Origin: Minisyncoccota bacterium
GTDB lineage: Bacteria; Patescibacteriota; Minisyncoccia; Phycocordibacterales; UBA9973
Reading direction: 5' to 3'
DNA length: 64,000 nucleotides
NCBI GenBank assembly: GCA_041661005.1
Contig: JBAZVG010000001.1
Location: 735,515 to 799,514, forward strand
The position numbers were made by a program, and so were the translations under genes. A model generated the notes under the pieces. That model made no database searches, was not told the origin of the DNA, and saw nothing but the letters and a program-made list of their open reading frames with translations. Shown one piece after another: positions 781 through 61,296 of the stretch. The first letter of the stretch is position 1; the number at the start of each line of letters is the position of its first letter.

Positions 781-3700
781 ATGGCTGAAAATGTAAATAA
801 TAGTAAATCAGACCCGCTTCGCCAAAGCAGAAGCGAGGCGAGTGTAGCACTTCCCGTCTCTGCTGGGAGCTCCGACGCGGCAAAGCGCGAAGAGGTGGTT
901 TTAGAATTTTGGCGTGAGAATAAAATTTTTGAAAAATCTGTAAAAGCCAGAGAAGGAAGAAAAGAATTTGTTTTTTACGATGGACCGGTTACGGCAAACT
1001 CTAAACCAGTTCTTCACACCATGGTGCCTTTTTCTTTTAAAGATGTAATCCCGAGATATAAAACCATGCGAGGTTATCACGTACGTCGTAAAGGTGGGTG
1101 GGATACACACGGTTTACCAGTAGAACTACAGATAGAAAAAAAACTAGGATTCAAGTCAAAAATAGATATTGAAAATTATGGTATTGCCGCTTTTAATAAA
1201 TTGTGCAAAGACAGTGTTTGGGAGTACATAGGGTTATGGAAAAGTTTTACTGAACGGATGGGTTATTGGGCTGATCAGGAAAATCCGTATGTGACATACC
1301 ACAATGATTATATTGAATCCGTATGGAACGTGGTAAAAAAAATAAATGATCGTAAATTGCTCTATAAAGATTACAAAGTTGTGCCTTGGTGTCCTAGATG
1401 TGGCACAGCTTTATCTTCGCATGAACTTGCGCAAGGGTATGAAGATGTAAAAGATTTGTCGGTGTATGTGAAATTCAAAATTATCGGATTTCCGAAAGCA
1501 TATTTCTTGGCTTGGACGACTACGCCGTGGACTCTGCCGGGAAATGTTGCTCTCGCTGTCGGTAAAGACATTATTTATGTGGAAGCGAAAGTAAAAGATG
1601 AAATTTTAGTGCTTGCCAAAGAACGACTTTCTGTAATCACTGATCCTTATGAAATTATTGCCGAGCATAAGGGAAGCGAAATGGTTGGTATGCAATATGA
1701 ACCGCTTTTTCCTTATCTCAATGAAACTATTTCGGGAAGCGAAAAATCAAAACTAGAAAAAGCATACAAAGTATATACTGCTGATTTTGTAAATACAGCA
1801 GATGGAACAGGCATTGTGCATACGGCTGTCATGTATGGTCAGGACGATTTTGTGCTTGGAACGCAAGTTGGCTTGCCAAAACATCACCTTGTGGATCTGG
1901 AAGGAAAATTTCTGAAGGGAGCTGGGTTTTTGGAAGCTAGATTTGTCAGAGAGACTGACCAGAATGGAAAACCGACTCTCGCGGTAGATATAATTGAGGA
2001 TTTAAAGAAAAGAAATTTATTTTTCAAGCAGGAAAATTACAAGCACTCTTATCCGCACTGCTGGCGCTGTCATACGGCGCTCATTTATTATGCGCGGGAT
2101 TCTTGGTATATCCGAATGTCTTCTCCCGCAATCAAAAAGCAATTAATCAGTGAAAATAAAAAAATAAATTGGGAGCCGGCGCATATTCGTGACGGACGTT
2201 TTGGCGAATGGCTACGGGAGATTAAAGATTGGGCGATATCGAGGGAGAGATATTGGGGGACGCCACTTCCGGTCTGGACATGTGAATCTTGCAAGGAGAT
2301 CAATGTTTTGGGAAGTCTGGATGAAATAAAATCAAAGACCAAAAAATCTGGCAATCAGTATTTTATCGCTCGTCATGGCGAGGCTATGAGTAACGTTAAA
2401 GGGGTTGTTGATTCAAAGGGTGACGAGAAGAACAATATGACTGAAAGGGGAATACAAGATGTAAAAAATAATATAAAAAGATGCAAGGAAACTCATTTTG
2501 ATTTCATTTTTAGCTCTCCGATGCTTCGCACTAGAGAAACAGCTTCAATCATTGCTGATACGATTGGTTTTGACAAAAATAAAATTATTTTCGATGAACG
2601 TTTATGGGAATTCAAAGTAGGAGATCTCGATGGAAAAAATATAGAAGAGTATTGTAAATATATCAAAACCATATCGGATTATTTTTCAACTCCGCTTCCA
2701 AGTGGAGAGAGTCGCCTCTCAGTGCATAAACGCATGGGAGATTTTATATATGAGTTGGAAAAGAAATATTCAAATAAAAAAATATTAATAATTTCTCATG
2801 GCGACCCTACTTTGGCAATGTTTTTAATTGCAAAGGGCTATACAAAAAGTGAGATAAAAAAAGAAGAAAATGATTTCAAATATTTACAGACAGGTGAGAT
2901 CAGAGAGCTTGATTTTGTCCCTCTTCCACACAATGAAGATTATGAATTGGATTTACATAAACCGTATATTGATGAGATTCCACTTACGTGTAAATGTGGT
3001 GGGAAATTAATTCGCACAAAAGAGGTGATGGACGTCTGGTTTGATTCCGGATGCATGCCTTTTGCGCAAGATCATTATCCCTTCGACTTCGCTCAGGGCG
3101 AGCCTTTTGAAAATGTGAAACTACCGTATCCGGCGGATTTTATTTGCGAAGCGATAGATCAGACTCGCGGTTGGTTTTACACTTTGCACGCTATTGGAAT
3201 TTTAATGGGGAAGGGTCAAGCATATAAGAATGTAATCTGCTTGGGGCACTTGCTCGATGCCAAAGGTAAAAAGATGTCTAAGTCTTTGGGTAATATCGTC
3301 GATCCTTGGAGCATGATAGAAAAATATGGTGTGGATACGCTTCGTCTGTGGATGTATTCAGTCAATCAGCCTGGAGAGTCAAAGAATTTTGATGAGAAAA
3401 CTGTCGCTCTGCTTTATAGTCAAGTTTTCGGGTTGCTTTACAATGTGCTTGCCTTTTATGAACTTTATAGAGATAAAAAAATAGAGACAAATGAACGGCC
3501 TAAGTCTAAAAATATTCTAGACAAATGGATTTTAGCTAGACTGGACGAACTAATAAAACTTTCTACGGAAAATCTGGACAATTATAAATTGCTTGAACCA
3601 GTGCGGGGAGTTAGGGATTTTATCAATGATCTGTCTACTTGGTATTTGCGTCGTTCACGCGAGCGAATTAAATCCGCCTCCGCTCAAGGCTCCGGCGAGA

Positions 3701-5509: not shown

Positions 5510-6090
5510 TGCACCACATTTATCACACAGAGGGAATAATATTGAGTAGCCGAAATTTTGGGGAAGCGGGGAAATATTATAGTGTTTTTACTCGTGATTT
5601 GGGGATGATTCATGCTTCCGCTCAGGGGGTGCGAAAAATGTCTTCAAAATTGCGTTTTGTGTTGCAAGATTTTTCTTATCTCAAGATTGATTTAGTCCAA
5701 GGCAAAAATATTTTTCGAATAACGAACGCGTCAAAGACAAACACACTTGAGCGCATCACCAGACAGCCTGAAAACTTTAAAGTCTTTGCGAATGTCGCGC
5801 GTTTATTGAAACGCTTGTTGGCCGGTGTCGAACCAAATGAAACTTTGTTCACAGATTTAGTGAATGGTTTGTTAATTTTAGAAAAGGCAAAGACTAAAGA
5901 AGATCTGAGCAACATCGAAGTAATCATAGTTCTGCGCATATTAAACAATCTAGGATATATCGGTGACAATGAAATATTGCAGAATCTTATAAAGTCTCCT
6001 TTCGAGGAAGATTTGATATTCGAAGTTTCGAAATCGAGAATTCATGTGTTACGTCAGATAAATAAAGCGCTCAAAGAGACGCATTTGTAA
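5509..6090 (+). CDS. recO: DNA repair protein RecO-like (short)
   Basis: The N-terminal OB-fold pattern 'EGIILSSRNFGEAGKYYSVFTRDLGMIHASAQGVRK' matches the RecO N-terminus. The start codon overlaps the upstream stop. Confidence 0.5.
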   Translation: MHHIYHTEGIILSSRNFGEAGKYYSVFTRDLGMIHASAQGVRKMSSKLRFVLQDFSYLKIDLVQGKNIFRITNASKTNTLERITRQPENFKVFANVARLLKRLLAGVEPNETLFTDLVNGLLILEKAKTKEDLSNIEVIIVLRILNNLGYIGDNEILQNLIKSPFEEDLIFEVSKSRIHVLRQINKALKETHL

Positions 6091-6160: not shown

Positions 6161-8110
6161 ATGTCATTAAACGATAGGAATAAATTAAACAGGATAGAGG
6201 AGCTCAAAAGCAAACTTTTTAGTAAAAGTTACCAGACGAAAATGGAGCACCGAGACAGATTTACACCCTCGAGAAGGAATGATATTCCAGATGTTTGGGA
6301 AGGCGGGAAAAATATCGGGGCTAATTCTGTTTCAAATCGAGGCAGGTTTTTTATGAAGACCTCTGTATTCAAAAGTTTTTTCCTGTTTTCTTTGGTTTTT
6401 TTTGGTTTAACTCTTATTTATGCTTCTTACGTGTTTTTTGCCGGTGGCAATACTGTTTCGAGCGACAACATAGAGATCTCCATACTCGGAAATAATTTCA
6501 CTGCCGGTGGGGAAGATCTGTCGCTCATTGTGGGCATTGCAAATAAAAATAATTCCTCACTTGATTTAGTTGATCTTGTTGTGGAGTATCCCAAAGGCTC
6601 TTCCAATTCGGAAACGGGTTTGTCAACTGGGACAGAAAGGTTTCGAGAATCCTTGGGGGCGATTCCTGCTGGAGCGGTGCGTAATGAGAATATAAAAGTG
6701 GTGCTTTTTGGCGAACAAGGGGCTGTGCGTCCTATCAAAGTTTCTATTGAATATCGGGTGGAAGGTTCGAATGCTATTTTTGTGAAAGAAAAAAAATATG
6801 AAGTTACGATCAGTTCCACGCCCTTGAATCTTTCCATTGATGCTCCTCTTACAATAAGCCCAAATCAAGACATCACTCTGAACGTGAAGGCGACCCTGAA
6901 CGCTACTTATCCAGTTTCAAAAATACTTCTTAAGTTAGATTATCCGATCGGGTTCCAATTTGTATCATCTGTTCCAGCTCCTTCTCTCGGAAACAATGTC
7001 TGGAGTTTGGGAGATCTGGCTCCCGGCGCAGGGCGTAATATTTCTATAACTGGAAAAATGTTTGATGTTGTCGATGGAGAAGAAAAGACGTTTCACATAT
7101 CGAGCGGATCGCAGTCAGCGGGAGATAAGTCCATGATCGACATGGTTTTCAACTCCTTATCACATACTGTTGAAATAAAAAAACCTTTCATCGAAGCAAA
7201 GCTTTTTGTAAACGGCGCATATCAGAGAGAATATTCCACAAATGCGAAAACTCCATTTCGTGGAGAGATCAGGTGGACAAACAACCTAGACACCAAGGTG
7301 AACGATCTTGAAATCAGAGCGAAGATTTCTGGCAATGCCGTTGATCGTAGAACGATAAACTCTGATCAAGGTTTCTATAATTCATCGACTGACACAATAA
7401 TTTGGGACAAGAATTCCAAGGATGATTTCAGGGAAATAAATCCAGGAGATTCTGGTTCTGTAAGTTTTTCCATCTCTCCACTCTCATTGTTTTCTGTCGC
7501 GAGCGGGATGCTCACCGATCCTATTATCAGCGTCAATATTTCTATTTCTGGCAAACAGTTGTTGGCTGGCTATGCAACTACGGATTTGAATAATTCTGAT
7601 TCTTCGGTTATTAAAATTATTTCTGATGTTGGATTTGCGACTAAGGCGCTTTATTATTCTGGACCTTTTACAAATAATGGCCCTGTTCCTCCTAGAGTTG
7701 AACAGGAAACATCTTATACAATAGTCTGGTCTCTTTCGAATACTGCCAACAATATTTCAAAAGGCGTGGTTCGTTCCAGCATTCCTTCGTGGGTAAAATT
7801 TATGGATTCCGTCTCGCCAACCAGTGAAGACCTAGTTTTCAATTCCTCCACTAGAGAAATCACTTGGAATATAGGCAGGATTCCTAAAGGCACTGGCATC
7901 ACCGAAGCTCTACGCAGTGTCTCCTTTCAGATTGCGATTTCTCCTTCACTTTCTCAGGTCGGAACTATTCCAGTTATCATAAATGACAGTATTTTGACTG
8001 GACATGATGATTTTGCTAATGTAGACGTGAGAGTAAGTAAAAATGCGCTCCGCACGCAATTAGATAACGACCCTCAGTTTCCTCCTGCTGGAGGCACGAT
8101 AGTTGAATAA
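6161..8110 (+). CDS. hypothetical membrane-anchored extracellular protein
   Basis: It has a cytoplasmic N-terminus, a single TM helix (FFLFSLVFFGLTLIYASYVFF), and a ~550-aa Ser/Thr/Asn-rich ectodomain. No catalytic motif was recognised. Confidence 0.5.
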   Translation: MSLNDRNKLNRIEELKSKLFSKSYQTKMEHRDRFTPSRRNDIPDVWEGGKNIGANSVSNRGRFFMKTSVFKSFFLFSLVFFGLTLIYASYVFFAGGNTVSSDNIEISILGNNFTAGGEDLSLIVGIANKNNSSLDLVDLVVEYPKGSSNSETGLSTGTERFRESLGAIPAGAVRNENIKVVLFGEQGAVRPIKVSIEYRVEGSNAIFVKEKKYEVTISSTPLNLSIDAPLTISPNQDITLNVKATLNATYPVSKILLKLDYPIGFQFVSSVPAPSLGNNVWSLGDLAPGAGRNISITGKMFDVVDGEEKTFHISSGSQSAGDKSMIDMVFNSLSHTVEIKKPFIEAKLFVNGAYQREYSTNAKTPFRGEIRWTNNLDTKVNDLEIRAKISGNAVDRRTINSDQGFYNSSTDTIIWDKNSKDDFREINPGDSGSVSFSISPLSLFSVASGMLTDPIISVNISISGKQLLAGYATTDLNNSDSSVIKIISDVGFATKALYYSGPFTNNGPVPPRVEQETSYTIVWSLSNTANNISKGVVRSSIPSWVKFMDSVSPTSEDLVFNSSTREITWNIGRIPKGTGITEALRSVSFQIAISPSLSQVGTIPVIINDSILTGHDDFANVDVRVSKNALRTQLDNDPQFPPAGGTIVE

Positions 8111-15157: not shown

Positions 15158-16060
15158 ATGCCAAAATACATAGACATACACAGTCACGTTAATTTCCACG
15201 CCTTCGATGAAGACAGGGGAGAGGCCATAAAGCGCGCCCTGGATAGCGGAACTTGGATGATAAATGTCGGCACCCAAATAGATACTTCAAGGACGGCAGT
15301 GGAGATAGCGAATCAATATAAAGAAGGTGTCTATGCGATTATTGGATTACATCCGATACACACAGGTGTTTCATATCATGATGAAAAAGAATTGGGTGAG
15401 GGTGGTAAGGAATTTGCTTCTCGTGGAGAAATTTTCGATAAAGAATCTTATCGAAAACTCTTGCAAGATAAAAAAGTTGTCGGGATAGGTGAATGCGGAC
15501 TTGATTATTACAGATGCACAGAGGAATCAATAGCGAAACAAAAAAATGCTTTTATAGAACAGATAGAACTGGCGAATGAATTTGACAAGCCGTTGATGCT
15601 CCATATTCGCAACAACCCAAAAAAAATCCACCCCACTCCGACTAAAGTCGGAGCACCCCTCAACGAGGGGAATTTAAATGCTTATACTGATGCTCTTGAG
15701 ATTTTAAAAATTCATTCAAAAGTTAACCCACGCCATGGCGGGGCAAGAGGCAACGTGCATTTTTTTGCGGGGACTTCCGAAGAGGCAAGAGGTTTTCTTG
15801 ATTTCGGTTTCACTCTTTCTTTTACCGGAGTCATCACATTTACACATGATTATGATGAGGTTATAAAGAACACTCCGCTTGATATGATCATGTCGGAGAC
15901 GGATTCTCCTTATGTCGCTCCTGTTCCGCACAGGGGGAAACGCAACGAGCCGTTTTATGTAAGTGAAGTGGTTAAGAAAATTGCCAAAATTAAAAATTTG
16001 CCCGAAGCTGAAGTAGCCGAAGCTATCATGGCAAATGCTAGGCGACTGTTTAATATTTAA
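15158..16060 (+). CDS. tatD: TatD family deoxyribonuclease/hydrolase
   Basis: The N-terminal 'IDIHSHVNF' metal-binding motif is present, along with 'GECGLDYY' and a C-terminal TatD pattern. An internal insertion of about 45 aa is also present. Confidence 0.75.
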   Translation: MPKYIDIHSHVNFHAFDEDRGEAIKRALDSGTWMINVGTQIDTSRTAVEIANQYKEGVYAIIGLHPIHTGVSYHDEKELGEGGKEFASRGEIFDKESYRKLLQDKKVVGIGECGLDYYRCTEESIAKQKNAFIEQIELANEFDKPLMLHIRNNPKKIHPTPTKVGAPLNEGNLNAYTDALEILKIHSKVNPRHGGARGNVHFFAGTSEEARGFLDFGFTLSFTGVITFTHDYDEVIKNTPLDMIMSETDSPYVAPVPHRGKRNEPFYVSEVVKKIAKIKNLPEAEVAEAIMANARRLFNI

Positions 16061-21747: not shown

Positions 21748-21799
21748 ATAGTTATTCTAACATATTCAACGATTTTTGAAACTCTTCATCGGCACTAAC

Positions 21800-21935
21800 T
21801 CTTCTCCGGTACGGATTTTTTTAAGCTTAAAAAATCCTGCCTAGCCCGTGCTGGTACGGCCAAGGGAAGTTTTCGCGCCGTCGCGCTCAAAACCCCTGCG
21901 AAGAGTTGTGCCTCAACGAGTTTCATAATTTAAAA
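21800..21935 (+). repeat. repeat family X copy 1 (hairpin GGATTTTTT-AAGCTT-AAAAAATCC element)
   Basis: The 'ccggtacggattttttaagcttaaaaaatcctg...aaacccctgcgaagagttgt' motif is shared with the copies at 47221 and 48727. This copy has an internal insertion. Confidence 0.7.
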
Positions 21936-22133: not shown

Positions 22134-23012
22134 ATGTTATCCATGAATAAGGACATGAATAAAAACCTCAAAGACTCCGAAGGAAAGCTCTCGGCTTCCT
22201 ACTCGCCTCGCTTACGCTCCGGCGAAGCGGGCGAGGAAGGCAACTATTCCATGTCCGTTATGAGTTATACAAAAACTCAGAAACTCATTACAGCTTTGTA
22301 TATGGTAACGGACGTAATGGACAACGAAGAGCCAATAAGAAATAAATTAAGGACATTGGGGACAGAAATAGTATCAGACTCCTCGACTACGCTCGGGGCA
22401 AACATGTCCATTAGAAGAATAGAGCAAATAATGTCCTTTTTAGATATTGCTTCTGCTATGAATTTTATCTCTGAAATGAATTGTGCTGTTTTGAAAAAAG
22501 AATTTTTTGGACTAAAAATGTCTCTGCAAGAATCAATGCAAGTAAAGCCAGTGTGGCTCGAAGAATTTTTAAATTCTCCTCTTGAGGAGTACTCCGACAT
22601 GGGGTCGGAGGGAGGTGGAAAGAATTTATCCACCCCGGCCTTTGGCCACCCCTCAAGAGGGGAATCAAAACACAAGGGATATTCTAACGGACATCAAACA
22701 AGTACCAGAATTGGTGTCCAAAAGGGAAGTACTCTTATGCAAGCCCTGGGAGAGATAAAAATGTCCGATAGAAGTCCTTTTGATATGAAAAATGATTTTT
22801 ATGTTCTTAAGAAACAAAGACGAGATGAAATAATAAATACTGTAAAGACAAATCCAAATGGTACTACTATAACGGACATTAAAACAAGAGCCACTGGGGT
22901 ACTTGTTTCTTGTAGTGAAAAGACACTGCAGAGAGAATTGGTGTCCATGACGAAAGATGGTGTCCTTAATAAAACAGGGGAGAAACGTTGGACTCGATAT
23001 TTCGTTAAATAA
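22134..23012 (+). CDS. hypothetical protein with a C-terminal winged-helix-like region; carries an in-frame copy of repeat family Y
   Basis: The 292-aa ORF has a C-terminal 'TITDIKTRATGVLVSCSEKTLQRELVSMTKDGVLNKTGEKRWTRYFV' region that resembles a wHTH. The internal GC-rich element at 22575-22662 is translated as NSPLEEYSDMGSEGGGKNLSTPAFGHPSRGES. Confidence 0.45.
   Translation: MLSMNKDMNKNLKDSEGKLSASYSPRLRSGEAGEEGNYSMSVMSYTKTQKLITALYMVTDVMDNEEPIRNKLRTLGTEIVSDSSTTLGANMSIRRIEQIMSFLDIASAMNFISEMNCAVLKKEFFGLKMSLQESMQVKPVWLEEFLNSPLEEYSDMGSEGGGKNLSTPAFGHPSRGESKHKGYSNGHQTSTRIGVQKGSTLMQALGEIKMSDRSPFDMKNDFYVLKKQRRDEIINTVKTNPNGTTITDIKTRATGVLVSCSEKTLQRELVSMTKDGVLNKTGEKRWTRYFVK
22575..22662. repeat. repeat family Y copy A (TIR-bounded ~90-bp GC-rich element, inside CDS)
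   Basis: It has terminal inverted repeats 'ctcctcttgaggagtac ... ccacccctcaagagggg', plus internal ggtgga/tccacc and ccgac/gtcgg hairpins. Confidence 0.75.
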
Positions 23013-23020
23013 TCCCTTAT

Positions 23021-23115
23021 TGAGCCTATTCTCCTCTTGAGGAGTACCCCGACTTTGGTCGGGGAGAGGTGGAATATCCACCCCGTCTCGCAAGCGAGCC
23101 ACCCCTCAAGAGGGG
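23021..23115. repeat. repeat family Y copy B
   Basis: It shares the TIRs and internal hairpins of copy A and lies immediately after the stop of ORF 22134-23012. Confidence 0.75.
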
Positions 23116-23548
23116 GATAAAGGGGGTTGCAATTTGCATTTTAACTCAAATATGATAGTATTGATATGTGGGTTATATCCCGCCGTTGGCGGGATCCTCA
23201 AATTCTATAGGCGCTTTTGCTTCTTAGAATTTGGGAGTTATCCACATAGTATGTTGCTCTACTATGGAGCTATGTATTATAATATTTTAGTTAGTATATT
23301 TGTTTTCTTTTTGTCGTCGCTTTTTATTTCGTCGAAAAAATTCTAAGCGAAGCTTTGAGAAAATAAATGCCCATTGAAAACTGAATAGCTATGTTTTTAA
23401 TGGTTTAGTTTACATCTGTTCGCCATTTGATTATTTGCCACATTATTAATTATTATTATTTATTGGCGAAGAAAAAATAGCGATAGAAAAAAATACGCTT
23501 TTAGTTTTGTCGAAACTTATTAATGGCGTAAAAGTTAGAAAAAAATTT

Positions 23549-25561
23549 ATGAGTAATTTATTAAAATCAAAATTCCTTCTTGGAGTTATGACTGTTGCGA
23601 TCATGTTCGTAGGCGCAGTTGCAGTTGCAACTACAGCTTCCGCTGACTGTACGGTCACTCCTACAGTAAAAGTTGGTTCTACGGGTGTGAACGTACAATG
23701 CGTTCAGACTATAGTAGGAGCAACAGCAGACGGTAGTTTTGGTCCTTTGACCAAAGCTGCAGTTATGGCTTGGCAATCAGGTCACAACTTGACCGCTGAC
23801 GGAGTAGTTGGCCCTATGACCGCTACTGCAATGAATAGCGGATCAACCAGTGCTAATCTCCCAGCAGGATGTCAAACTGGTGACTTGTTTAGTGGAACAA
23901 CCGGACTTTCATGTTCTGGAGGTTCTTCTAATCTTCCAGCAGGATGTCAAACTGGCGACTTGTTTAGTGGAACAACCGGACTTTCATGTTCTGGTGGTTC
24001 AACACCTTCAACACCTTCAAACACTGGTCCTCTAGTGGGAACAGACGGAACAATTTCTGACATTAATCAACTTTCTTCTTTTAACAATGAAGAAGTTGGT
24101 GATGGTGCAAACGATGTTAAAGTTATGGGATTTGATCTTGTGACTTCAAATGATGGAGATGTCGCTGTTAAATCAATCAAATTGACTTTTGATGGTGCAG
24201 ACAGTTCAGGTTCAACTCGTGTTGCTGATTATCTAGATTCTGTTAAAATCCTTATGGGTTCAACAGAAGTTGGAGTAGCAGATATGTCTGATTTCAACAA
24301 AGATAGTACAGGAGTATATTCAAAGACCATCACTCTTAGTGGTGCAGTCCTAAGAGCTGATACTACTACAAAGTTTTATGTAGCAGTTGATGCAGTATCA
24401 AATCTTGATTCAGGAGATATTGCGACAACAGCTGATAACTGGGAAGTAGGTATTAACAATATCCGTTATGAAGATGGATCAGGAGTTGTAACAACTGAAT
24501 CTGATTTAATGCCAGCTGCTATTGAATATAATTCAACAGGAGATGGTGTAAATATTTCATTTGTTTCTTACTCAACTTCAGCTGATACTGAACTTAAGAT
24601 TTCCTTAAACAGTACTCCAGTTGCACAAGTTGTTAAAGTAAGTGCTACAGCAGATTCTGTTTCACCGCTTGTTATCTTAAAGGGTAAATTAAAATTGGAA
24701 GGTACGTCTGACGTTTTGTTAGATTCATTCCCAATTTTGTTTACTACTACTGAATCAGATCTTGTTGAAGTAACACCAACTGTATATCTTACACTTGGAA
24801 CAGAAGAATTTTCAGAGTCAGTAACAGGAGGTGCTTCAACAGAGACAGTTGCTTTTGACAATCTTGATTACACCATTGATGCTGGTTCAACTGTAAACTT
24901 CACTGTTTCCGTAGATCTAAATGATATACAATCTTCAACATTTGATGAAGGAACAACTTTGAAGGCAGAGTTAACAACCACACTTCGTGATGGTGCAAGC
25001 TTTGTTGCTGAAAATGCACAAGGTGATGCCTTGGTAGATGCGACAGAAAAAACTGGTTCTGCTCTAGGTGAAGTTCAGACATTCCGTTCTACAGGTATCA
25101 ATGTTGTATTAGTAGGTACCACTGCCGATGTGGCAAAGGGACTTACTACTGCTCCAGATGTTGGAACATATACAATTACATTTGATGTAACTGCATTTGG
25201 TGCTGATATGTATATTGATGGTACTAAGCCAACTCTAACAGGCGAAGATTCAACCACTTTGACTATCAATGATCCTGGTACATCTACTCAAACTGCAGTT
25301 ATAACTTCACCAACAGGTGCAACTATGACTGGAACAGTAGATACTACTTCTAGATTCTTAGTCACAGAAGGTGAAACTGAAAGATTTACTATTACTTCTA
25401 TAGTTACTCCTACTGTTACAGGTGGACTAACTGCTGTATCACTCACAAGTCTTGCTTACGATGATGCTGATATAGATCTAGTAGATGCTACAAATATAGA
25501 ATACACAACAAATCTTACTCAGTTCATTACATCATACAAAAACTTGGTGTTAACAAACTAG
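23549..25561 (+). CDS. secreted Thr/Ser-rich surface protein with a peptidoglycan-binding (PG_binding_1-like) domain and Cys-containing tandem repeats
   Basis: It has a signal peptide/TM 'FLLGVMTVAIMFVGAVAVATTASA' and a PG-binding-like 'DGSFGPLTKAAVMAWQSGHNLTADGVVGPMT'. A 2 x 25-aa repeat 'NLPAGCQTGDLFSGTTGLSCSGGS' follows, then a long beta-rich T/S/D/V region. Confidence 0.6.
   Translation: MSNLLKSKFLLGVMTVAIMFVGAVAVATTASADCTVTPTVKVGSTGVNVQCVQTIVGATADGSFGPLTKAAVMAWQSGHNLTADGVVGPMTATAMNSGSTSANLPAGCQTGDLFSGTTGLSCSGGSSNLPAGCQTGDLFSGTTGLSCSGGSTPSTPSNTGPLVGTDGTISDINQLSSFNNEEVGDGANDVKVMGFDLVTSNDGDVAVKSIKLTFDGADSSGSTRVADYLDSVKILMGSTEVGVADMSDFNKDSTGVYSKTITLSGAVLRADTTTKFYVAVDAVSNLDSGDIATTADNWEVGINNIRYEDGSGVVTTESDLMPAAIEYNSTGDGVNISFVSYSTSADTELKISLNSTPVAQVVKVSATADSVSPLVILKGKLKLEGTSDVLLDSFPILFTTTESDLVEVTPTVYLTLGTEEFSESVTGGASTETVAFDNLDYTIDAGSTVNFTVSVDLNDIQSSTFDEGTTLKAELTTTLRDGASFVAENAQGDALVDATEKTGSALGEVQTFRSTGINVVLVGTTADVAKGLTTAPDVGTYTITFDVTAFGADMYIDGTKPTLTGEDSTTLTINDPGTSTQTAVITSPTGATMTGTVDTTSRFLVTEGETERFTITSIVTPTVTGGLTAVSLTSLAYDDADIDLVDATNIEYTTNLTQFITSYKNLVLTN
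23860..24009 (+). repeat. 2 x 75-bp tandem coding repeat
   Basis: The two units are near-identical and in-frame within the surface protein gene. Confidence 0.8.
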
Positions 25562-47208: not shown

Positions 47209-47220
47209 TTTAGGTATAAC

Positions 47221-47305
47221 TTTTTTCCGGTACGGATTTTTTGAAGCTTAAAAAATCCTGAAGTTCTCGGCTCGTCAGCCTCGAAACCCCTACAAAAAGT
47301 TTACC
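47221..47305 (+). repeat. repeat family X copy 2
   Basis: It is near-identical to copy 3 at 48727-48815. Confidence 0.8.
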
Positions 47306-48692: not shown

Positions 48693-48726
48693 TAATGGTA
48701 GATTACGAAATTCACAAAAATACGAA

Positions 48727-48815
48727 CTTTTTTTCGGTACGGATTTTTTGAAGCTTAAAAAATCCTGAAGTTCTCGGCTCGTCAGCCTCGAAACCCCTTC
48801 AAAAAGTTGTATTTT
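48727..48815 (+). repeat. repeat family X copy 3 (between riboswitch and metK start)
   Basis: The sequence is 'cggtacggattttttgaagcttaaaaaatcctgaagttctcggctcgtcagcctcgaaaccccttcaaaaagttg'. Confidence 0.8.
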
Positions 48816-49971: not shown

Positions 49972-50826
49972 TTGGTGTATACTATATGTATGTTTAAAAA
50001 ACTACTTCTATTTTCGATTATCTTAGGAATCTATTTTGTAGCAAATAGCGCATTTGCTACTGTCGGCGGACCGACTTATATTTCTGAGATCGCTTTTAGT
50101 GCTGTTAATAATTCTATCTATTACAAAGTGCATGATGGAGGTGGCAGGGGGTGCCCGCCGATTATCCACCGGATTGATTTAGTTACTCTCAAAGATTCGG
50201 AAGTGAAATCATGCAATCAAGTGGAGCGAGAATTTCCATATAGTGAAACAAACACACAAAAGTATAACCAATTTATCGCAGATACTTATGAGAGTCTTTC
50301 TTATCTCGGAAGTGTCAGTCTAAAAAAGAATAATATCGATGTTCAGGTTGAATTTCTATCCGAAAATAAATTAGAAGGAGAAGATAATTGGATTATTTCG
50401 CGCAATTTTCGCGCGACCATCACTCAAGATGATAAAGAAATTGGCGCAATAAATTTTAAGGGGTGTGATAAAGATCAGCCACATGTTTTCGAAGGATATA
50501 TGATTCCAAATTCTGATAAAATGGCTATGTTAATTTCTAACAAAGGAGATTGTTTTGAAGGTGGATATTTAGGGGAAAGTTTACATATTGTGAAAGGTGT
50601 AAAATATTATGATAAAAATATAGTGAGAGGTTTTAAACAAGCATCAGCAACAGAACCGAATATGGGTAATGTCGTGGTGTATGCTGGGGTGGCTAATAAT
50701 CCAGAGCGGGAAGCACCAGCACCTGGAGAGGCTACTACCCCTAATAAAAATAGTAACTATATTCTATATATTATAGTGATTGCTCTAGGATTAGGACTAG
50801 GGTATTTCTTTGGAAGAAAAAGATAG
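49972..50826 (+). CDS. hypothetical secreted protein with C-terminal membrane anchor
   Basis: It has an N-terminal signal/TM and a C-terminal 'YILYIIVIALGLGLGYFFGRKR' TM plus basic tail. Confidence 0.4.
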   Translation: MVYTICMFKKLLLFSIILGIYFVANSAFATVGGPTYISEIAFSAVNNSIYYKVHDGGGRGCPPIIHRIDLVTLKDSEVKSCNQVEREFPYSETNTQKYNQFIADTYESLSYLGSVSLKKNNIDVQVEFLSENKLEGEDNWIISRNFRATITQDDKEIGAINFKGCDKDQPHVFEGYMIPNSDKMAMLISNKGDCFEGGYLGESLHIVKGVKYYDKNIVRGFKQASATEPNMGNVVVYAGVANNPEREAPAPGEATTPNKNSNYILYIIVIALGLGLGYFFGRKR

Positions 50827-50852
50827 ATAATAACTTCTTGACACAGGATTAT

Positions 50853-50937
50853 TCTCCTCTTGAGGAGTACCCTTTAGGGGGAGGTGGATTGAATTTATCC
50901 ACCCCGTCTCGCAAGCGAGCCACCCCTCAAGAGGGGA
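50853..50937. repeat. repeat family Y copy C
   Basis: It has the same TIRs and internal hairpins as copies A and B and lies directly after the stop of ORF 49972-50826. Confidence 0.75.
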
Positions 50938-50979
50938 ATTATGGTTGCAAAATCTAAGGATAAGTTATAAAATAGACGT

Positions 50980-60405: not shown

Positions 60406-61296
60406 ATGCAAATAATTGACGGAAAAAAATTACGAGTAAAAATTTTGGAAAAAGTAAAAAGTGAAGTAGCTTCACTTGCTTTTCAGCCAGTTTTTTGCGA
60501 TGTCTTGGTGGGTGGTGATCCGTCCTCGGCGCAGTATGTCAAAATGAAAGCTAAAACAGCAGAATCAGTTGGTATTAAGTTCCATAACGCGGATTTTCCC
60601 GAGTCTATAACTACTGACGAACTCATAAAAGAAATAAAGATTTTGAATAAAGTAAAAAATATGTGCGGAATTATAATCCAGCTTCCATTGCCGGAACATT
60701 TAGATAAAAGTAAAATACTGAACAGCATTGATTCGCATCTAGATGTAGATTGTTTAGGAGATGTTGCGAGCGAGAAATTTTACAATGACTATAATATTCA
60801 AACAGATCTAGGATATCCCACAGCTTTGGCTTGTATGGCGCTTCTTGATTCTATCGATTTGGATTTGGACCCCTCGACTCCGCTCGGGGCAGGCAAAAAA
60901 ATAGTAGTTCTGGGGCAGGGGATGTTGGTCGGTAAACCCGTTTCTGCTTTGTTGAAGTATAGAGGATTAAATCCGATCATTATTAGAAGTAAAACTCCTG
61001 ACAAAGAACAGCTCATCAAAGAAGCAGACATTATAATTTCAGGCATGGGTAGTGGAAAATATTTGACAGGCAATATGGTCAAGAAGGGCGTGGTTATTAT
61101 TGACGCTGGAACTTCTGAAGAAGTAAGTGGCTCACTCTCAGGACAGGGACGAGTAAACATAGTCGGTGATGTTGATTTGGAATCCGTGAAAGATGTTGCT
61201 GGGTATGTTTCACCCGTTCCGGGAGGTGTCGGACCAGTGACTGTCGCAATGCTTCTCAGTAATGTATTAAAAGTTGCAAAGAGTTTGAATAAATAA
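60406..61296 (+). CDS. folD: bifunctional methylenetetrahydrofolate dehydrogenase/cyclohydrolase
   Basis: 'IIDGKKLRVKILEKVK', 'VGGDPSSAQYVKMKAK' and 'GVGP.T.AML' are present. Confidence 0.8.
   Translation: MQIIDGKKLRVKILEKVKSEVASLAFQPVFCDVLVGGDPSSAQYVKMKAKTAESVGIKFHNADFPESITTDELIKEIKILNKVKNMCGIIIQLPLPEHLDKSKILNSIDSHLDVDCLGDVASEKFYNDYNIQTDLGYPTALACMALLDSIDLDLDPSTPLGAGKKIVVLGQGMLVGKPVSALLKYRGLNPIIIRSKTPDKEQLIKEADIIISGMGSGKYLTGNMVKKGVVIIDAGTSEEVSGSLSGQGRVNIVGDVDLESVKDVAGYVSPVPGGVGPVTVAMLLSNVLKVAKSLNK

Follow-up and report, generated by a model that had tools for sequence, protein, structure and literature searches.

Family Y, a palindromic repeat of Paceibacteria that is often read through in frame within genes

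Patescibacteria (CPR) have tiny, streamlined genomes that are thought to be poor in mobile DNA. In a 64,000-nt stretch of one such genome, from a Minisyncoccota bacterium (hereafter the window), a GC-rich block of about 90 bp lies inside an open reading frame (ORF) and recurs twice outside genes. An earlier note, made from the letters of the window, had likened this block to the Correia, RUP and ERIC elements that colonise genes, with a structured non-coding RNA or a border between two genes as alternatives. Is the block, which we call family Y, a mobile repeat, an RNA, a piece of conserved protein or a gene boundary, and what keeps it in place?

Anatomy of the copies in the window

To fix the copy boundaries, we aligned the window copies with 117 copies from other genomes. 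Copy A (22573-22665; 93 nt, GC 0.56) lies inside ORF 22134-23012, whereas copies B (23028-23118; 91 nt, GC 0.59) and C (50851-50939; 89 nt, GC 0.54) are intergenic; all three are full elements on the forward strand, and the GC content of the whole window is 0.37. The earlier note had placed these copies correctly but had drawn the conserved blocks slightly too narrow. The 17-nt termini that it quoted each have three exact matches in the window, against a chance expectation of 0.05, so the three GC-rich copies bounded by terminal inverted repeats are real.

The inverted repeat of the family is ATTCTCCTCTTGAGG / CCTCAAGAGGGGAAT, 15 bp long with one conserved T.G position. Folding indicated that this stem closes three internal hairpins in copies A, B and C, rather than the two described before, with z-scores of -5.3 to -7.0 on either strand. 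The closing-stem arms of copy A occupy 22573-22587 and 22651-22665 on the forward strand, and enclose hairpin 1 (22592-22610), hairpin 2 (22611-22636) and hairpin 3 (22637-22647) on the same strand. Across the three copies, hairpin 1 reads CUCCGAC/GUCGGAG, CCCCGAC/GUCGGGG or CCC/GGG, and hairpin 3 reads GGCC/GGCC or CUCGC/GCGAG; copy B differs from copy A in both hairpins, and the changes are paired.

Copies B and C do lie downstream of stop codons, as had been reported. Copy B starts 16 nt past the TAA stop of the co-oriented ORF 22134-23012, and copy C starts 25 nt past the stop of the co-oriented ORF 49972-50826, with a 23S rRNA gene about 1 kb further downstream.

The three full copies are not the whole complement of the window. 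A profile search recovered a half element (singlet unit), previously missed, at 15627-15673 on the forward strand, in frame within ORF 15158-16060 (forward strand). This ORF encodes a TatD-like DNase with 61% identity to the TatD_DNase gene of another Y-bearing locus (L004). The half element consists of TCCACCCC, the hairpin CTCCGAC/GTCGGAG and then CACCCCTCAACGAGGGGAAT, and falls where the L004 ortholog has a gap of 14 aa, opposite PKKIHPTPTKVGAP. The basic unit of the family is about 45 nt long and comprises TCCACCCCG, a variable hairpin and then CCACCCCTCAAGAGGGGAAT. Right halves stand alone eight times in the loci of the matches listed and once in the window; no solitary left half was found in these loci or in the window. 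Two loci carry symmetric doublets (L177:1231-1354 and L162:162-282), built from the reverse complement of a right half, an AT-rich spacer and a right half. The solitary right halves and symmetric doublets together indicate that the common form of about 90 nt, copies A, B and C included, is an inverted doublet of the 45-nt unit whose left half has diverged, an organisation like that of REP/REPIN.

The site of copy A in its host gene

ORF 22134-23012 (forward strand) translates copy A in frame as NSPLEEYSDMGSEGGGKNLSTPAFGHPSRGE (aa 147-178), which bears out the earlier observation that the copy adds about 30 residues and keeps the frame. The host is a conserved winged-helix protein of Paceibacteria, 100% identical to a hypothetical protein of a Candidatus Paceibacterota MAG; over 1,100 homologs are present in Nomurabacteria, Paceibacteria and their relatives. 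Synteny around the gene is kept, with ftsK divergent upstream and a PG_binding gene downstream. AlphaFold predicted two domains with confidence, an N-terminal helical (four-helix) bundle at residues 40-146 and a C-terminal winged-helix domain at residues 218-285; residues 148-199 between both domains had pLDDT values below 50. Copy A falls within this low-pLDDT interdomain linker and is predicted to be a translated insertion in a disordered segment.

We classified 120 homologs at the site directly after the conserved WLEEF motif. The element is present in the forward orientation (SPLEEYP...HPSRGE) in 12 of the 120 and reversed (SPLEGW...KGYSSRGE, which matches the translation of the window's minus strand) in about 11. 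Other palindromic repeat families (PLLDKEG..., HPNPLLxKERG) occupy the site in about 20 homologs, decayed copies occupy it in some, and it is empty in several (P0082, P0095, P0027, P0044, P0051 and P0110). At the DNA level, locus L001 carries the element forward, with 19-nt termini identical to those of the window, and L004 carries it reversed, with synteny kept. A similar segment of about 30 aa thus recurs in some orthologs, but others have it reversed, replaced by another family, decayed or missing. Because forward, reversed, other-family, decayed and empty states meet at one site, we read the WLEEF-motif site as an insertion hotspot for several repeat families, and neither as conserved protein nor as a gene boundary. 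The proposal that the ORF is really two genes falls with the element-free orthologs, which are single continuous proteins.

Two pairs of closely related strains show how such sites change. Between L116 and L117, the hotspot flanks are 93-97% identical and the hotspot segment is completely different; between L118 and L119, the flanks are 99.6-99.9% identical and a cassette has been replaced at a second, N-terminal hotspot. The hotspots thus turn over quickly, probably by recombination. In 77 ortholog loci picked by protein similarity, a sample unbiased by the element pattern, the termini had either 0-1 mismatches or background similarity, with few intermediates. We do not claim a special tie between Y copies and the winged-helix gene: copies flank this gene in about ten loci, but the excess over a rough expectation for intergenic DNA is only 3-6-fold at best.

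Distribution, sites and constraint across genomes

We scanned a species-representative genome collection with the pattern CTTGAGGAGTAC-N35-65-CCACCCCTCAAG, which finds copies through 24 exact nucleotides and favours intact elements. The scan returned at least 110 loci; the matches listed contain 117 unique copies in about 50 genomes, with up to eight copies from a single genome (MAG). Further copies therefore exist well beyond the window. For phage carriage, viral contigs gave no match to the family Y pattern. Almost every carrier among the matches listed bears the label Nomurabacteria, Paceibacterota or Patescibacteria. A few carrier contigs are labelled Simkania, Burkholderiales or 'Saccharibacteria', which probably reflects binning or naming problems. 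These odd labels, together with the fact that all data come from MAGs, could be taken to mean that the family itself is an artefact of assembly or binning. We find this hardly credible: the same element occupies the same sites in independent ENA, JGI, Logan and NCBI assemblies, and is embedded in intact homologous ORFs with kept synteny.

Over the 117 copies listed, the terminal 8 nt on each side are 91-100% conserved, and conservation falls to the background level one base outside. The consensus runs ATTCTCCTCTTGAGGAGTAC, hairpin 1, GGGAGGTGGA, a loop, TCCACCCCG, hairpin 3 and CCACCCCTCAAGAGGGGAAT. The conserved block measures 77-104 nt (cores of 61-88 nt plus 16 nt) and has no transposase ORF; its reading frames are host read-through only. 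We enumerated the hairpin variants and folded them directly instead of using a covariance model, because MAFFT misaligns the length-variable hairpins. Among the copies listed, hairpin 1 has 40 sequence variants; nearly all of them pair perfectly over 3-9 bp, and their stems differ. Hairpin 3 has about 55 variants, most of which fold, and several of the shortest (e.g. GGCTTTCAGC) pair only with a flanking C included. At minimum energy, 94 of the 111 copies listed fold into the closing stem and exactly three hairpins, and the closing-stem T.G is kept in 105 of the 109 listed. The subfamilies are genome-specific: a hairpin-3 variant is common to 19% of within-genome pairs versus 4.7% of between-genome pairs (permutation p<0.0005; copies listed), which indicates spread or gene conversion within genomes.

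This structure does not behave as a strand-specific non-coding RNA. In an Rfam 15 scan of the window, only rRNAs passed the gathering threshold, and at E values up to 10 nothing else matched except miRNA-hairpin models far below threshold. Of the 111 copies listed, 94 fold more stably as the antisense strand, on which ground we rejected a structure specific to the sense RNA. The terminator role suggested for copies B and C fared no better. No T-tract follows the stem in the copies listed, the right flank being A-rich (A at +9/+10 in 52-61%), and terminator scans detected no canonical terminator at B and, at C, only the 5-bp arm hairpin with a weak tail. Promoter-like sequences (TTGCAA-17/18-TATGAT/TAAAAT) that stand 6-9 nt after B and C were also dismissed, as such 9/12 matches occur at chance frequency.

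Comparison of the flanks yielded no target-site duplication: flank-to-flank direct repeats (k=1-4) and extensions of the inverted repeat were at or near the shuffled expectation. The terminal AT...AT is self-complementary, both inverted and direct, and hence uninformative on duplication. About 0.9 Mb of flanking DNA contained no autonomous element with Y termini; in it, no left terminus lacked its partner and no pair of termini stood widely apart. Among the copies listed, the left flank favours T-W-A, and C never occurs at position -9. An outer repeat, GAATTT...AAATTC, is enriched (21 versus 1.1 and 13 versus 1.6), but at variable distance, and orthologous sites account for part of the enrichment; a weak target preference is possible. 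The right flank TATGATACAATAATA is conserved in five loci; it adjoins no RNA gene and is probably just an orthologous site.

Where do the copies lie? Of the 117 listed, 52 are inside ORFs in the sense direction, 7 are inside ORFs in the antisense direction, 19 overlap an ORF end and 39 are intergenic. The 59 copies in ORFs are spread over at least 15 different gene families. Hosts confirmed by Pfam include Tgt (TGT), UvrB, KsgA/RsmA (RrnaAD), PheT domains, TsaD, PurD (GARS), IF-2, UvrD/PcrA, RNase R (RNB), DNA polymerase I (DNA_pol_A), LeuRS, an FAD-linked oxidase, a Xer-type recombinase (Phage_integrase) and a phosphoglucosamine-mutase-like enzyme (PGM).

Most copies within genes use one frame, SPLEEYP...TPQEGN, and the peptide segments encoded by the element include SPLEEYPLGGGG and TPQEGN. 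Avoidance of stop codons was rejected as the cause of the 52:7 sense bias, since copies listed have on average 1.28 open frames in sense and 1.18 in antisense. The preferred frame gives the most hydrophilic peptide among the open frames (GRAVY -1.14), and tolerance of this peptide may be the cause of the bias. One might go further and suppose that the peptide of about 30 aa is itself selected as a protein module, with the DNA repeat as a by-product; the single frame and its hydrophilicity would agree with that. We consider this very improbable. One third of the copies listed are intergenic, the 3' half is read in three frames (HPSRGE, TPQEGN and PPLKRG), antisense readings occur too (SPLEGW and IPLLRGG), and the peptide lies in a predicted disordered segment. 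Moreover, synonymous positions of the constant modules are equally invariant while the host flanks vary, which places the constraint at the nucleotide level.

Some sites are occupied in several genomes: among the matches listed, the same site carries a copy in seven genomes in Tgt, seven in KsgA, six in PheT and five in UvrB. The junctions at these four sites agree within 1-3 residues and fall between conserved blocks. Such same-site occupancy requires one of two things: the insertions are old and selection or conversion has kept them intact, or re-insertion is very site-selective. At orthologous sites, the host flanks have 60-74% nucleotide identity and the variable modules 54-73%, whereas the 32 constant-module positions outside the search pattern are 92-98% identical. 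Near-invariant cores are not what pure selfish drift predicts.

Orientation and position near gene ends are also biased. Copies follow the G-rich/coding strand in 83 of the 101 copies listed, including 29 of the 35 intergenic ones; a replication bias and a transcription bias are inseparable here because GC skew and coding strand coincide. Among the copies listed that lie downstream of a sense ORF, 17 of 36 abut the stop codon, lie within 6 nt of it or form it, the first A being common to a TAA or TGA stop or the stop coming from an internal TCTTGA. This proximity could instead reflect a function in cis.

Taking these results together, we think that family Y is probably a non-autonomous palindromic repeat of Paceibacteria (Nomurabacteria lineage) that is maintained in trans and persists at tolerated places. 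Copies would spread within genomes, or be homogenised between copies, and would be exchanged between strains by recombination. They would persist only where the harm is small, a pattern visible in their positions: between genes, in short spacers and very often at or directly beside a stop codon, or inside a gene where one open frame is kept, usually the sense frame SPLEEYP..., which adds about 30 hydrophilic residues rich in Gly, Pro and Ser to a loop or linker. The constant modules would most likely owe their constancy to a protein that acts in trans and recognises them, a transposase or other DNA-binding factor, and this factor would act on DNA because the structure is strand-symmetric. Mobility would likewise be provided in trans.

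In the main rival account, family Y is a structural element that acts in cis and that selection keeps at orthologous positions; it may be a repeat that has been domesticated. The closing stem and its three hairpins would work in the transcript or in the DNA: they might stabilise mRNA 3' ends or stall ribosomes next to stop codons, be processed by an RNase, or bind a nucleoid or repair protein common to the lineage. The constancy of the modules against the divergence of the host DNA, the bimodal distribution of intact and absent termini, the paired changes in the hairpins, the sharing of orthologous sites by up to seven of the genomes listed, the clustering at stop codons, the strand preference and the kept T.G wobble all speak for such an element. 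We nevertheless judge it unlikely. The structure is strand-symmetric, with the antisense fold usually the more stable; a single site can hold either orientation, and the element is absent or decayed in many orthologs. There is neither a terminating T-tract nor an Rfam family, copies are sparse (about 1 per 20 kb), and internal loops, hairpin lengths and total length vary freely. Even without selection, pairing could be preserved through gene conversion or through quasipalindrome correction by template switching. A related and equally doubtful proposal takes the constant core of about 56 nt as a lineage-wide functional DNA/RNA module, domesticated and REPIN-like, that is read by a conserved Paceibacteria factor. 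If so, the core would stay intact at orthologous positions within essential genes, among them Tgt, KsgA, PheT and UvrB, as well as at stop codons; it might, for instance, tune expression or translation termination, or organise or repair the very small chromosome, and its being read as peptide would be a side effect that the cell tolerates.

The presence of family Y has practical consequences. The repeats add low-complexity segments of about 15 aa (half unit) to about 30 aa (full element) to annotated CPR proteins. Clustering by single linkage, for example, joined Tgt to the winged-helix protein and others; such spurious similarity between unrelated proteins can confound analyses of orthology, protein families and structure. 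The near-invariant core offers a simple DNA marker for the lineage, which flagged contigs binned as Simkania and Burkholderiales, and a handle for finding the putative recognising protein.

Comparison with known systems

A full-text literature search returned no account of family Y in CPR/Patescibacteria, nor of any repeat there that resembles MITEs, RPEs or REPINs. The family is apparently undescribed and of a known kind of selfish DNA (RPE/REPIN/MITE-like). The MITEs named Correia, ERIC, RUP and BOX are small, have terminal inverted repeats and many dispersed copies, and occasionally include in-frame intragenic copies (PMC10969869). Family Y is likewise small, dispersed, bounded by terminal inverted repeats, without coding capacity of its own and polymorphic for presence or absence, and to that extent the earlier comparison with Correia, RUP and ERIC elements stands, as does the picture of a family that colonises coding sequences in frame. 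Strict membership does not, for lack of a TA or other target-site duplication. In addition, about 0.9 Mb around Y copies contained no insertion sequence whose inverted repeats would mark it as the parent, the share of intragenic sense copies is far higher than in MITEs, and family Y has a three-hairpin junction with paired variation.

The likeness to REP/REPIN sequences lies in the hairpin unit, which is present both singly and in inverted doublets able to fold into one long hairpin, in the genome-specific subfamilies and in the lack of a target-site duplication. A REP family is defined by a GTAG or CGTC head by the palindrome (PMC3733652). Family Y has a GT tetranucleotide next to its hairpins, GTAC before hairpin 1 and GTGG before hairpin 3 (on the other strand), similar to those heads but not identical. 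Half of the copies listed (59 of 117) are intragenic, whereas REPs are extragenic by definition, and the stems of family Y are variable and its flanks constant, the reverse of classical REPs.

RAYT-like genes are present in three Y-bearing genomes (L022 5781-6476, L090 1099-1761 and L004 5089-5736), with a weak Y1_Tnp match (20.6 bits) and HFH and YIHLNP motifs; none was found in the window. These three genes are flanked by genome-specific palindromes of their own, which interrupt two of them, and no Y unit flanks any of the three. We therefore set these RAYTs aside as the mobiliser of family Y. On the evidence of these genes, REP/RAYT systems exist in the Y-bearing lineage, but a link between a RAYT and family Y is only a hypothesis. 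Strict membership thus breaks down for MITEs on target-site duplication, and for REPs on extragenic location and RAYT flanking.

By analogy, REP/REPIN doublets and Rickettsia palindromic elements (RPEs) are the closest counterparts of family Y. Ogata et al. reportedly described, in 2000 and 2002, RPEs that are read as extra peptide segments, often at the same position in related species, and Amiri et al. are said to have found in 2002 that RPEs decay with species divergence. As with family Y, no transposase or target-site duplication is known for RPEs. Family Y further resembles them in being small, palindromic, in frame in unrelated housekeeping genes, often at the same position in related species, and read through, with a peptide that, in copy A, lies outside the folded core (residues 148-199, pLDDT below 50). 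It differs in occurring in Patescibacteria rather than Alphaproteobacteria, in its length (77-104 nt versus about 100-150 nt) and in being an inverted doublet of a 45-nt unit that also occurs as singlets. In about 50 genomes its core hardly varies, whereas RPEs reportedly decay. The comparison with RPE families 1-10 is an analogy by description, the hosts being Paceibacteria and not Rickettsia.

RPEs insert in frame into the housekeeping genes of a reduced genome (PMC10969869). Family Y places one repeat family inside core information-processing genes across a class-level lineage, in parallel with Rickettsia, whose genomes are also reduced. This parallel suggests that in-frame 'coding palindromes' are a recurrent outcome when almost no non-coding DNA remains.

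Inserts and predicted fold of the copy A host gene

ORF 22134-23012, the gene that carries family Y copy A, contains at least two additional GC-rich in-frame inserts. The first spans 22190-22240 and encodes a peptide containing ...SPRLRSGEAGEEG..., and the second (22377-22400) is a 24-nt repeat, GACYCCTCGACTMCGCTCGGGGCA, translated as DSSTTLGAN, with similar copies within two other ORFs of the window (3077-3100 and 60868-60891). Because orthologs vary at both positions, we regard these as further insertion hotspots, occupied by other repeat families. Structure prediction gave an N-terminal four-helix bundle for residues 40-146 of the encoded protein. Its best structural match was the '23S rRNA intervening-sequence protein'/DGR Avd fold (2gsc, 2rld and 4dwl), with a target-normalised TM-score of ~0.75 and a Foldseek E-value of ~2e-3. 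As a weak lead from this modelled fold, the protein may have a nucleic-acid-binding role.

Other repeats and a conserved gene start

A separate repeat of ~84 nt (AACTTTTTTCCGGTACGGATTTTTTGAAGCTTAAAAAATCCTGAAG...) is present in the window as two full copies that are 98% identical (47217-47301 and 48724-48808), together with a partial copy in the intergenic region between ftsK and ORF 22134 (21796-21839). Downstream of copy B, the segment 23170-23250 holds a small GC hairpin (CCCGCCGTTGGCGGG) and, after it, the inverted repeat CTCAAATTCTA...TAGAATTTGGGAG. We also observed that a stretch of ~82 nt (23509-23590), located where the gene encoding a PG_binding domain begins, shares 94% identity with a related genome (L004:11356-11436) and 85-96% nucleotide identity with many other ortholog loci; protein identity for the surrounding genes was only about 50-60%. 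The stretch is unusually well conserved at the nucleotide level, which could point to a leader, an RNA element or a signal-peptide region.

Unusual locations, forms and taxon labels of family Y

Among the related genomes, a copy of family Y lies close to the anticodon-binding domain in the LeuRS gene at L098:1579-5070. This gene also holds inserted Ser_hydrolase and DUF559 (endonuclease-like) domains and is thus a heavily invaded essential gene. Composite copies exist as well: L130:2170-2291 consists of a full element with an extra right half directly after it, and the hotspot peptide of P0062, a homolog of the ORF 22134-23012 protein, corresponds to one element and a half. Some carrier contigs are filed under unrelated taxa, namely 'Simkania sp.' (L006 and L024), 'Burkholderiales' (L064) and 'Saccharibacteria' (several TPA contigs). 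Those examined had typical Paceibacteria host genes, such as PheT in L064, and the labels probably reflect mis-binning or mislabelling. Family Y could be usable as a lineage marker.

RAYT-like genes in Paceibacteria

Paceibacteria genomes contain genes resembling RAYTs (IS200-type Y1 transposases), at L022:5781-6476, L090:1099-1761 (minus strand) and L004:5089-5736, with a weak Pfam Y1_Tnp match and HFH and YIHLNP motifs. The syntenic EF-P/RecA position in the window lacks a RAYT-like gene. The palindromes bordering the three genes are genome-specific, each genome having its own (CCCATAGGTCAGACCTATGGG, GACAAGGTCGAACCTTGTC or AAACTTGTCGACCTGGCAGGTTGACAAGTTT); those at the L022 gene lie at 5760-5790, 6067-6090 and 6470-6492. 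In L022 and L090, the RAYT-like gene also carries its own flanking palindrome in-frame within the coding sequence.
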